From an uncultured Acidobacteriota bacterium (GTDB lineage Bacteria; Acidobacteriota; Thermoanaerobaculia; UBA5066): DNA of 64,000 bases. Each line of letters opens with the position of its first letter. The stretch's first letter is position 1. Under the pieces are notes generated by a model that saw nothing but the letters and a program-made list of their open reading frames with translations, made no database searches and had not been told where the DNA came from. The position numbers were made by a program, and so were the translations under genes. Shown one piece after another: positions 58,331 through 61,328 of this stretch. The stretch is from assembly GCA_963801475.1 (NCBI GenBank), contig CAWDEX010000001.1, forward strand, positions 2,567,019-2,631,018. Reading direction: 5' to 3'.

Positions 58331-59168
58331 ATGACGGGGGGGAACGTGTACCAGATCGTCAAACGCGAGCAGTTTTCCGATGTCACCTTTCTCTGGGACG
58401 TCCACGCGCCCGACGTGGCGAACGCCGCCAAGCCCGGCCACTTCGTCATGGTCCGGCTGCGACGAAGGGGGCGAACGGATCCCGCTGACCGTCGCGGACT
58501 ACGACCGGGACTGGGGAACCGTGACGATCGTCGTCCAGGCTCTCGGCAAGACGACGCGGGAGATGATGCGGGACTTCAAGGAGGGAGACACCTTCTCCGA
58601 CTTCGTCGGGCCGCTCGGGCTCGAGAGCCACGTCGGAAAAGTGGGGCACGTCGTCCTCGTCGGCGGCGGCCTCGGCGTCGCGCCCATCTTCCCGCAGCTC
58701 CGCGCCTTCAAGGAGGCCGGGAACCGGACGACGGGGATCATCGGCTTCCGCACGAAGGACCTCGTCTTCTGGGAAGACCGCTTCAAGCACTACTGCGACG
58801 ACCTGATCGTCTGCACGGACGACGGCGTCGTACGGGAAGCCCGGCTTCGTGACCGTGGCGCTGAAGGAGGTGATCGAGAAGGAGAAGCCCGACCTCGTCG
58901 TCGCGATCGGTCCGCTGCCGATGATGCGCGCCTGTTCCGAGGTGACCCGCCCCGTTCGGCGTGAAGACGATGGTCTCGCTGAACGCGATCATGGTCGACG
59001 GGACCGGGATGTGCGGCTCGTGCCGCGTGACGATCGGCGGGGAGACGAAGTTCGCCTGCGTCGACGGCCCCGACTTCGACGGCCACCTCGTCGACTTCCC
59101 CGAGCTGCAGCTCCGGCAGGAGCGGTTCAAGCCGCAGGAGACGATGGCGAAGGACGACTTCGACGAAG
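58331..59168 (+). CDS. NfnA/SudB-like FAD + [2Fe-2S] oxidoreductase module (ferredoxin-NADP reductase-type), interrupted by four 1-nt insertions. There is no stop before the next module.
   Basis: Joined frames read MTGGNVYQIVKREQFSDVTFLWDVHAPDVANAAKPGHFVMVRL|DEGGERIPLTVADYD...VLVGGGLGVAPIFPQLRAFKEAGN...CTDDG|SYGKPGFVTVALKEV...EVTRP|FGVKTMVSLNAIMVDGTGMCGSCRV...FACVDGPDFDGHLVDF. Breaks are near 58460, 58827, 58954 and 59168. Confidence 0.7.
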
Positions 59169-61328
59169 ATCTGCTCCATCGAGGAGCAGCTCTTCGAGCT
59201 GAACAAGCGGAACTACAAGAAGTTCAAGGAGCTCCCCGAGCACGCCATGAAGATGCCGGAGCGCGACGCCGCGGAGCGCTCGCGCAACTTCGAGGAGGTG
59301 AACCTCGGCTACACCCTGGCCGACGCCCTCGTCGAGGCCGAGCGCTGCATCCAGTGCGCCCGCCCGACCTGCATCGCAGGGTGCCCCGTCTCGATCGACA
59401 TCCCCCGCTTCATCCGGCACCTCCTCGTCCGCGACCTGCCCGGCGCCCTCTCGGTCATCCAGGAGACCAACCTCTTCCCGTCCGTCTGCGGCCGCGTCTG
59501 CCCGCAGGAGACGCAGTGCGAGATCCAGTGCATCCTCGAGAAGAAGATGGAGCCGGTCGCCATCGGGCGGCTCGAGCGCTTCGTCGGCGACCACGCGCCG
59601 CTCCCCGACGTCCAGCCCCCTGCGAACGCCGGGCAGCTCGGGCAGGGTGGCCGTCGTCGGCTCCGGCCCGGCCGGCCTCGCCTGCGCGGGCGACCTCGCC
59701 CGCAAGGGGGCCGACGTGACGGTCTACGAGGCGCTCCACGTCGTCGGGGGCGTCCTGAAGTACGGCATCCCGTCGTTCCGCCTCCCGCGGACGACGATCG
59801 ACCGCGAGGTGAGCGCGCTCGAAGAAGCTCGGCGTGAAGTTCGAGACGAACAAGGTCATCGGCAAGACCTTCACGATCCCGCAGCTCCTGGGCGAGATGG
59901 GCTACGACGCCGTCTTCATCGGGACGGGCGCCGGCTTCCCGAGGTTCCTCGGCATCCCGGGCGAGCAGGCCGGGCAGGTCTACAGCGCCAACGAGTTCCT
60001 GACCCGCATCAACCTGATGGGCGGCGACAAGCTTCCCCTTCGAGGACACGCCGATCGCCCTGGGGAAGAAGGTCGTCGTCCTCGGCGCCGGGAACACCGC
60101 GATGGACTGCCTCCGCGTCTCGCGGCGGCTCGGGGCCGAGGAGGTCCACTGCCTCTACCGGCGGACCGAGGCCGAGGCGCCCTGCCGCGTCGAGGAGCTG
60201 CGCCACGCCAAGGAGGAAGGGATCCACTTCCACTGGCTGATGAGCCCGACCGAGATCGAGATGGACGAGAAGGGGAACGTGAAGGCCATCGTCGTCCAGA
60301 AGATGGAGCTCGGCGAGCCCGACAAGTCGGGGCGGCGCCGGCCGGTCCCGATCAAGGACGCGTTCGAGACGTTCGAGTGCGAGACGGTCATCTACGCCCT
60401 CGGCACGCGGGCGAACCCCGTCATCTCCCGGACGACGCCGAACCTCTCCGTCCGCGGCGAGGGGTACATCAACGTCGACCAGAAGACGCAGGCCGCGTCG
60501 ATCCCGGGCGTCTTCGCCGGCGGCGACATCGTCACCGGCGGCGCGACGGTCATCCTCGCGCTCGGCGCCGGGCGGCGGGCCGCCCGCGCGATCGAGAAGT
60601 ACCTGAAGACGAAGGAGTGGCCGGTCGTTCTCGAAGACGAGGCTGCGCCCACCGGGGCCGCGGCGCCCAAGGTCGTCGACGCCGCCTGCCCGAAGTGCCA
60701 GCGTCCCTTCGAGCCGGGCGACGACGAGCATATCTGCTGCGCGGGGGAGACGATCGTCTGGACCTGCGGCAGCTGCCAGAAGGTCTCCGAAGGGTTCGCG
60801 TTCCCGTACGGGCTCTGCCCCGCCTGCGGCGGCACGCTCGCGCCGGGGCACGACACGAAGGTGGAGTCCGAGGCCGCCGTGATCGCGATCCGGCAGGCGT
60901 TCGAGATCGAGCTGGGGGGCCTCTCCTTCTACGCGCGGGGCGCCGACGAAGTGGAGGCGAAGGACCCGGAGCTCGCCCGGCTCTTCCGCGAGCTCTCGGA
61001 GATGGAGCGCGGGCACATGGACACCCTCGCGCGCCGGTACCACATCGCGGCACCGGAGGGAGCCGTCACGAAGAGCCTGTCGCCGGCCCAGGTGGCCGTC
61101 TTCGCCGGGGCCGACTTGAAGGACATGTCCGGGGCGGCGCTGCTGCGCCTCGCGGTCCACCTCGAGAAGCGGGCGCGGAGCTTCTTCCTCGAGGCCGGCG
61201 GGAGCTTCCCGGCCGGCTCGCCCGAATGGAAGCTCTACCGCGAGCTGGAGGCCGAGGAGCGGGAGCACGTCGATCTCCTCTCGACGGCGCTCGCTCGCCA
61301 CCTCGCCGAAAAGCCGATGATCGTGTGA
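59169..61328 (+). CDS. NfnB/GltD-like NAD(P)H-FAD oxidoreductase (2x[4Fe-4S]) fused to a Cys-rich zinc-ribbon and a rubrerythrin/ferritin-like di-iron domain. It is interrupted by three 1-nt insertions.
   Basis: - **GltD-type N-terminus:[20 protein letters not shown]...[20 protein letters not shown]...[16 protein letters not shown].
- **Nucleotide-binding segments:** |[21 protein letters not shown]...|[13 protein letters not shown]...|[26 protein letters not shown]...GVFAGGDIV.
- **Zinc ribbon:** CPKCQ...CGSCQ...CPACGG.
- **Di-iron domain:** two E...ExxH pairs (FEIELGG...EMERGH; HLEKRA...EEREH).

Breaks are near 59646, 59824 and 60032. Confidence 0.7.

Follow-up and report, generated by a model that had tools for sequence, protein, structure and literature searches.

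A frame-damaged member of a catalogued family of fused NfnAB-type proteins with a cysteine ribbon and a putative di-iron domain in an uncultured Acidobacteriota bacterium

In this study, a 64,000-nucleotide (nt) stretch of DNA from an uncultured Acidobacteriota bacterium of the Thermoanaerobaculia (assembly GCA_963801475.1, contig CAWDEX010000001.1, positions 2,567,019 to 2,631,018 of the forward strand) has been analysed, and this whole stretch is referred to as the window. The element under study is the region 58331-61328 on the + strand, which is found to be a single gene once seven 1-nt insertions are taken out (2998 - 7 = 2991 nt = 996 codons and a stop). It is near certain that its product has an architecture of four modules in one chain, namely an NfnA-like module, an NfnB-like module, a cysteine-rich ribbon and a ferritin-like four-helix bundle. 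The fused core has already been described and the full architecture is already catalogued and widespread, the gene of the window being a frame-damaged member of this family. The features of the gene are as follows.

58331-61328, + strand: whole target gene, 996 amino acids (aa) and a TGA stop after repair, with the likely start at GTG 58346
58346-59174, + strand: NfnA-like module, aa 6-280, an FNR-type FAD/NAD(H) domain (from PDB matches, Pfam and invariant motifs)
58459-60032, + strand: stretch with the seven +1 insertions (from the alignment with the intact ortholog L001, the reconstruction and Viterbi decoding), each position being given to within a few nt on either side
59096-59249, + strand: junction of the A-like and B-like parts, a long helix and a linker, aa 255-305, holding the insertion at about 59166
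59277-59597, + strand: NfnB-like N-terminal domain with two [4Fe-4S] sites (from Fer4_20, the 4ylf_B alignment and invariant columns)
59644-60617, + strand: NfnB-like FAD and NADPH Rossmann domains, aa 437-760, with GSGPAG and GAGNTA (from Pyr_redox_2 and TIGR01316)
60621-60686, + strand: low-confidence and poorly conserved linker, aa 762-783 (from column counts; predicted local distance difference test score, pLDDT, <50 at 769-781 of the full-length model)
60687-60842, + strand: ribbon of eight cysteines, aa 784-835, CPKC-x12-CC-x8-CGSC-x13-CPAC, with an invariant core of 11 residues
60870-61307, + strand: ferritin-like four-helix bundle, aa 845-990 (from the Pfam Rubrerythrin match, invariant ligands, AlphaFold2 (AF2) and Foldseek)

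The reading frame was established in three ways. In the three-frame translation, the frame steps by +1 seven times from 58331 to about 60035 and is open thereafter through the TGA at 61326-61328. The global DNA alignment with an intact ortholog (L001:725-3718, 89% DNA identity) places the seven extra single bases of the window near 58462, 58826, 58950, 59164, 59639, 59820 and 60029, along with an in-frame 3-nt indel at 60725. The coding sequence was rebuilt by dropping one base each at 58459, 58826, 58950, 59166, 59639, 59822 and 60032, and it has 996 codons without an internal stop; which base was inserted is ambiguous by a few nt at each of the seven sites. A greedy stop-avoidance count of frameshifts is uninformative at 68% GC, and a codon-bias Viterbi decoder trained on the intact genes of the window was used in its place. 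Without homolog information, it returned the same seven +1 switches at 58460, 58829, 58946, 59165, 59645, 59819 and 60032. The claim of the original prediction that the region is one frame after seven 1-nt removals is thus borne out by translation, ortholog alignment and decoding, and its 2991-nt arithmetic is right. Its start at ATG 58331 does not hold, as this codon is not conserved among the relatives (it is absent in L009 and L032), whereas the in-frame GTG at 58346, with a G-rich stretch before it, is kept in them (as TTG in L009). Since the GTG is conserved, the ATG is not, and the homolog consensus N-terminus MYxIV fits the downstream codon, the real start is probably 58346, giving a protein of 991 aa.

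The N-terminal three quarters of the repaired protein correspond to an Nfn core. Its aa 3-275 match the full-length small Nfn subunit in the PDB sequences (Pyrococcus furiosus 5jca_S, E 2e-93; Thermotoga maritima 4ylf_A, E 4e-78), and aa 305-761 match the large subunit (4ylf_B, E 4e-152; 5jca_L, E 3e-139). Pfam annotation of the repaired protein places DHODB_Fe-S_bind at aa 217-253, Fer4_20 at aa 315-421 (E 2e-39) and Pyr_redox_2 at aa 437-742 (E 3e-35), and agrees with the four-module parse given earlier, all of whose quoted motifs are present; moreover, TIGR01316 scores 565 bits, above its cut-off of 472. The cofactor motifs named as typical in the Nfn review (PMC6405883) are all found and are conserved throughout. 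ERIPLT (ERxPxT) lies at aa 48-53 (58473-58490), with E48, R49, P51, L52 and T53 invariant in 64 homologs. The [2Fe-2S] motif DGTGMCGSCR-x10-CV, offering one aspartate and three cysteines (58997-59062: D222, C227, C230 and C242-V243), is invariant in the family, and DGTGMCGxCR-x10-CV with its aspartate ligand is the NfnA [2Fe-2S] motif (PMC6405883). In the NfnB-like part, C338, C341, C346, C350, C385, C389, C395 and C399 as well as E392 and E396 are all invariant in the family alignment. The possibility of a stop between the A-like and B-like parts, raised with the original prediction, was looked into, and the junction is free of stops in more than 100 intact orthologs. The automatic annotation name of glutamate synthase was rejected, the best structural relatives being NfnB proteins and not GltD. 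No GltB-type large subunit and no amidotransferase or FMN domain was found in the protein by Pfam, and no GltB-type gene was found among the neighbours in the window or among the flanking open reading frames (ORFs) sampled in five related loci.

The C-terminal part begins with the ribbon, whose cysteines 784, 787, 800, 801, 810, 813, 827 and 830 are each present in 119 of 119 aligned homologs. Its profile gives weak matches to the HypA zinc site (E 0.003) and to the rubrerythrin Fe(Cys)4 (FeS4) domain of Desulfovibrio vulgaris (E 0.017); the pair C810xxC813-x13-C827xxC830 is invariant, and its match to a rubredoxin-like Fe(Cys)4 domain is weak. In the bundle which follows, the Pfam Rubrerythrin domain (PF02915, cut-off 22.8 bits) is found at aa 852-902, where it scores 25.4 bits on the full sequence and 35.6 bits on the last 222 residues by themselves. 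The putative di-iron ligands E858, E890-x2-H893, E943 and E974-x2-H977 are located on helices of the model and are present in all 119 sequences, so these residues, on whose presence under proper alignment the earlier assignment depended, are retained. The AF2 model of the C-terminal part, made with 78 homologs, has a mean pLDDT of 86 and shows a small beta ribbon and then four long helices. Foldseek against PDB returned ferritins, bacterioferritins and the COG1633 protein 2oh3 (E ~1e-3, target-normalised template modelling (TM) score ~0.65). In the PDB sequence search, the C-terminal part gave marginal matches only (2fzf at E 0.006; zinc-ribbon ribosomal proteins at E >0.1), and the NCBIfam comparison gave weak similarity of the module to the EncB and MbfA ferritin-like domains. 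In classical rubrerythrins such as D. vulgaris Rbr, the second glutamate of helix C (ExxE) is a redox-dependent seventh ligand. Here helix C reads E943-K-R-A946, with alanine at 946 in 119 of 119 sequences, and the ligand set is therefore of six residues, as in bacterioferritin. The rubrerythrin-like label thus stands as far as the above-threshold Pfam match and the di-iron ligand set are concerned, but the fold and the ligand pattern are not closer to rubrerythrins than to bacterioferritin or COG1633 proteins. The fold of the model is generally ferritin-like, without specific preference for rubrerythrins.

The same domain order was found by database search both as a family model and as intact proteins. 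Searching a protein collection with the repaired protein returned at least 120 homologs of 980-1010 aa with 65-91% identity and 99% coverage, from Thermoanaerobaculia, other Acidobacteriota, Anaeromyxobacter, other Myxococcota, Binatia and Bdellovibrionota, most of them named 'NADPH-dependent glutamate synthase'. The model NF009413/PRK12775 aligns over its positions 1-1003 of 1006 with aa 6-993 at 1630.9 bits. This is below its strict equivalog cut-off of 1895, so the protein has the same architecture but is more remote than the sequences of the seed. The shorter model NF009414/PRK12778 (752 positions) aligns over 2-751 with aa 7-758 at 999 bits, below its cut-off of 1103. Relatives of the C-terminal module are encoded in at least 500 species-level genomes, one genome being scanned per species, and 80 species-representative loci were kept for comparison; most of these have an open frame of about 990-1010 codons. 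The module family is compact, as a profile search of 1.84 billion representative proteins gave 75 clusters at E<=1e-30 and 218 at E<=1e-10, with fragments making up a good part of the sequences listed. The covalent arrangement had been called unusual, which is overstated: fusion of NfnA to NfnB is known as 'pattern B', for example in Clostridium autoethanogenum (PMC6405883), NF009413 covers all four modules, and relatives of the module are widespread in the genomes scanned.

The search with the C-terminal part alone also brought out a split form of this architecture. Stand-alone module proteins of 210-220 aa share about 50% identity with it, and one of them (P0193) matches NF009413 positions 789-1006. 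In each of the five full loci fetched, the stand-alone module gene is found directly 3' of a fused nfnAB gene (778-790 aa). L003 and L006-L008 (Betaproteobacteria and related contigs) show a 4-nt overlap of the pair, and the genes that come next there encode a pyruvate:ferredoxin oxidoreductase (PFOR), a DHODH-like protein and a small ferredoxin. In L005, a Rhodospirillales metagenome-assembled genome (MAG), they are separated by a short gap and the pair lies within a nif cluster with NifQ, NifW and a homocitrate-synthase-like/NifV-like gene. Further, NfnA and NfnB parts precede the module in all of the 80 genome loci having upstream sequence, and no locus examined had the module other than as an extension of a fused NfnAB or in a gene of its own immediately behind such an nfnAB gene. 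This fusion/fission pattern marks the module as a dedicated partner of this Nfn clade. It is the strongest argument that the module works together with the core, drawn from gene arrangement and giving no indication of the kind of function. The significance of this finding lies in a large Nfn clade, covering Thermoanaerobaculia, Holophagales, Anaeromyxobacter and other Myxococcota and some Alpha- and Betaproteobacteria, in which a dedicated di-iron partner is present, as a fusion or as the product of an adjacent gene.

The mechanism which may be proposed from these sequences is that of a PRK12775-type Nfn core and a ribbon feeding a built-in di-iron site that reduces peroxide or oxygen, and as a whole package we consider its chances to be about even. 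The core would hold an a-FAD, an Asp/Cys3 [2Fe-2S] cluster, two [4Fe-4S] clusters and a b-FAD with an NADPH site, and it would work in an Nfn-like manner, distributing electrons among NADPH, NADH and a low-potential branch via the two [4Fe-4S] clusters. From the distal cluster, electrons may pass by way of the tethered ribbon, which is probably either a rubredoxin-like Fe(Cys)4 site or structural zinc, and the di-iron site that receives them would reduce H2O2 or O2 to water. Such a site could serve as a peroxidase/oxidase outlet or as self-protection for a low-potential, oxygen-sensitive flavo-iron-sulfur enzyme in hosts possibly meeting oxygen, a lifestyle for which the literature gives a statement on Anaeromyxobacter only. 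A protective or outlet role fits because several of the hosts are not strict anaerobes, Anaeromyxobacter being described as facultative, and because the split form adjoins oxygen-sensitive PFOR and nitrogenase gene sets. An NAD(P)H:H2O2 or NAD(P)H:O2 activity is plausible, with the fusion/fission pattern supporting functional coupling.

A number of observations weigh against this proposal. The ribbon is without a significant family match and could hold structural zinc, and two neighbouring cysteines (CC) make up one of the four knuckles. The Foldseek matches of the bundle are modest and no closer to rubrerythrins than to ferritins and bacterioferritins, and the ExxE of rubrerythrin helix C is lacking. 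A ferroxidase, iron-handling or sensor role of the di-iron domain fits equally well. The structure prediction, from which docking of the ribbon and di-iron domains near the FAD/Fe-S chain had been looked for, gave no confident docking; the full-length AF2 model has a predicted TM score (pTM) of 0.55 with linker pLDDT <50, and the C-terminal module is not placed confidently with respect to the core. No activity data for any PRK12775-type member were found in the literature.

The main alternative is that the C-terminal part would be an accessory module, and not an electron sink, of an ordinary Nfn transhydrogenase (reduced ferredoxin + NADH + 2 NADP+), acting as a ferroxidase or iron buffer, as a sensor of redox state, O2 or iron, or as an oligomerisation element. 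This alternative, possible but rather doubtful in our estimate, draws on the fold and six-ligand pattern shared with bacterioferritin and ferritin-like proteins, the weak EncB/MbfA similarity, the intactness of all Nfn motifs and the lack of confident docking in AF2, as well as on the split form, whose PFOR and ferredoxin neighbours suggest metabolism of the ordinary ferredoxin-linked kind. On the other hand, the eight invariant cysteines between the core and the bundle resemble an electron relay, as in rubrerythrin and reverse rubrerythrin, and not a spacer, and the strict one-to-one tie to the Nfn clade argues for mechanistic coupling, though of an unspecified kind.

The origin of the seven frame breaks also has to be weighed. 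All seven are +1 insertions, with zero deletions and zero nonsense substitutions. Compared with three orthologs, the gene shows a ratio of nonsynonymous to synonymous substitution rates (dN/dS) of 0.14-0.20, without a difference between the 5' 1.7 kb that holds the breaks and the 3' 1.3 kb that has none. Identity between the repaired protein and its nearest relative is 91%, and almost all relatives have an intact ortholog. Other genes of the window were also seen to be interrupted. Type I restriction-modification-like genes at 22341-26371 (- strand), an hsdM-like gene (MTDVVQKLWGFCHTLRHDGIDYGDYIEQITYLLFLKMADEK...) and a helicase/hsdR-like gene, have frame changes at about 25648, 25438, 24670 and 23431, among others, every one read being +1. 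The whole-window decoder proposed further +1 changes at about 18889 and about 5083-5860 (- strand) within long coding stretches; this decoder is noisy from antisense shadow frames, and its extra breaks are candidates only. Among the relatives, the L038 and L051 orthologs, from MAGs with isolate names starting MFD, have one frame change each (tblastn high-scoring segment pairs in frames 3 and 1), and those of L009 and L036 are intact; we suspect that some of the closest relatives, the MFD-named MAGs with contigs called contig_N, are long-read assemblies.

The all-insertion pattern, the equal and low dN/dS and the similar breaks in other genes of the window favour consensus errors, and the seven insertions are most likely errors of the assembly consensus and not biology. 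Against this, neither a homopolymer nor a sequence context shared by the seven sites could be made out, and seven breaks within 1.7 kb beside error-free neighbours are a high local density for a consensus artefact. Both points would suit a genuine pseudogene of very recent origin, inactivated in the organism by multiple frameshifts, the adjoining AurF-like, tnaA-like and dienelactone-hydrolase genes being intact. The original prediction had itself named this outcome as one that would undo it, and we consider it unlikely, since every event is of the same +1 type without a deletion or nonsense substitution, dN/dS is as low in the broken half as in the intact half, the same type of break clusters in the restriction-modification genes and possibly elsewhere, and intact orthologs prevail among the relatives. 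The evidence thus leans to sequencing or assembly error, and the broken frame is probably a data-quality problem shared by other genes of the contig.

Around the gene, the following features have been identified.

57262-58176, + strand: upstream ORF of 304 aa with E...ExxH...E...ExxH (Pfam AurF below threshold, 22.9 vs 29.6 bits)
58268-58326, + strand: conserved upstream block, from an alignment of five relatives, with GG-N10-TTGCA at 58270-58284 and then GGATAGTCTCGCCGCC
61325-62704, + strand: beta-eliminating lyase of the tryptophanase/tyrosine phenol-lyase family (Pfam Beta_elim_lyase, E 1e-75; NF009709, 668 bits)
62787-63464, + strand: dienelactone-hydrolase/YghX-like gene
63466-64000, + strand: start of a molybdopterin-oxidoreductase-like ORF (by eye, from the Cys-rich N-terminus CNRDCPDACG)

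The upstream ORF had been taken for another di-iron protein gene; its E...ExxH motifs are present, but its AurF match falls below the threshold, and no NCBIfam or PDB sequence match was found for it. It is syntenic with the target gene only in the close Thermoanaerobaculia relatives L001, L009, L010 and L036-L038. The downstream lyase passes the tryptophanase subfamily model and is below both the TnaA and the tyrosine phenol-lyase equivalog cut-offs. The reported GTGA coupling to tnaA is correct, its GTG at 61325-61327 overlapping the TGA of the target gene at 61326-61328, and this start/stop overlap recurs in L001, L010 and L011. The three downstream genes are syntenic in L009 and L032. L010, whose sequence stops short of the third ORF, has the first two, and in L034 and L036-L038 synteny is limited to the second (hydrolase-like) and the third. 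The AurF-like/lyase/hydrolase neighbourhood is found only in the closest Thermoanaerobaculia (L001, L009, L010, L032 and L036-L038). Farther relatives have differing neighbours, and no recurrent neighbour genes were found across the fused-type loci, so the target gene behaves as a self-contained unit. In the conserved block, GG at 58270-71 and TTGCA at 58280-84 give a GG-N10-GC spacing which matches the sigma-54 -24/-12 promoter, and the block may be a regulatory, sigma-54-like element. No sigma-70-like promoter was found in the upstream region, and a simple promoter/terminator scan was without useful result. Farther upstream, at 56506-57124 (- strand), two small overlapping ORFs resemble, by eye from their translations, a HepT (DUF86, RNRLVH)/MntA nucleotidyltransferase toxin-antitoxin pair.

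It is very improbable that the bundle is a di-iron oxygenase or hydroxylase of the Coq7, MiaE or AurF style fed by the Nfn-like core, here maybe in a pathway of aromatic amino-acid modification with the AurF-like and tryptophanase-like neighbours, since the synteny of the AurF-like, nfn-like and tnaA-like genes in the closest relatives (the last two being translationally coupled) and the weak COQ7 match of one stand-alone homolog (E 0.028) are outweighed by the confinement of this synteny to a subset of Thermoanaerobaculia, by unrelated neighbours elsewhere, and by the small size of the bundle, about 150 aa, whose model shows nothing added for substrate binding.

If the module is a peroxide or oxygen outlet, as in the mechanism preferred above, flavin-based electron bifurcation would be tied to oxidative-stress defence in one protein, and hundreds of annotations as 'NADPH-dependent glutamate synthase' would be corrected. 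In the literature, Nfn proteins are viewed as two-subunit or simply fused transhydrogenases, mostly of strict anaerobes (PMC6405883). The searches on Nfn with rubrerythrin, on the PRK12775 family and on Anaeromyxobacter rubrerythrin found no study of this architecture.

In comparison to the NfnAB of T. maritima and P. furiosus, the target protein spans NfnA and NfnB at full length, by aa 3-275 and 305-761, and keeps all the cofactor motifs, whereas it is one polypeptide instead of two subunits and has in addition a C-terminal part of about 235 aa made of linker, ribbon and ferritin-like bundle. It is therefore not of the two-subunit arrangement (pattern A), being a single ORF in more than 100 orthologs, and corresponds to the fused pattern B with an extension. 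Pattern B proteins (NF009414, about 752 aa) have the same order of A and then B in one chain, but they end at the end of NfnB, whereas the target continues into the ribbon and the ferritin-like domain. The architecture of NF009413/PRK12775 is identical in its four modules; the name of this model, 'putative trifunctional 2-polyprenylphenol hydroxylase/glutamate synthase subunit beta/ferritin domain-containing protein', consists of domain labels strung together. Two other candidates were set aside. The 'pattern D' Nfn of Spironucleus salmonicida is just about 100 aa longer than pattern B and is given no di-iron domain in the review, and in Clostridioides difficile the 'GltD' that works with rubrerythrin belongs to the GltB-like FMN proteins, has a rubredoxin at its N-terminus and is unrelated to this core.

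The 2019 review of Nfn proteins distinguishes patterns A-D, none with a ferritin-like domain (PMC6405883). PRK12775 might represent a fifth, undescribed Nfn architecture, in which a tethered module of Fe(Cys)4 and di-iron sites takes the place of ferredoxin, or competes with it, as acceptor at the low-potential branch and makes the protein a self-contained NAD(P)H-driven peroxide/O2 reductase, possibly confurcating or bifurcating. We put this forward only tentatively, as a rather improbable reading; if true, flavin-based bifurcation chemistry might be run or protected amid oxygen, in bacteria meeting oxygen and in Proteobacteria carrying nif or PFOR genes.

With rubrerythrin and reverse rubrerythrin (D. 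vulgaris Rbr, 1RYT), the target shares the four-helix di-iron bundle and the CxxC...CxxC knuckle pair, and with reverse rubrerythrin also the order of ribbon and then bundle. It differs in the eight cysteines of the ribbon, including the CC pair, in the ExxA of helix C in place of ExxE, and in its covalently attached electron donor, which in rubrerythrin systems is a separate rubredoxin with its reductase (NROR). By analogy, the proposed mechanism would be the rubredoxin-dependent rubrerythrin arrangement made covalent, and it would parallel Rub-Bfu, a predicted complex of BfuBC and rubrerythrin in which a bifurcating-type flavo-iron-sulfur module is paired for peroxide reduction, itself a prediction only (Schut et al. 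2022, PMC9304861). In Rub-Bfu, the input module is of the HydBC/NuoEF type and not of the Nfn type, and the genes are separate, whereas in the PRK12775-type protein the Nfn core, the ribbon and the di-iron bundle are joined in one chain.

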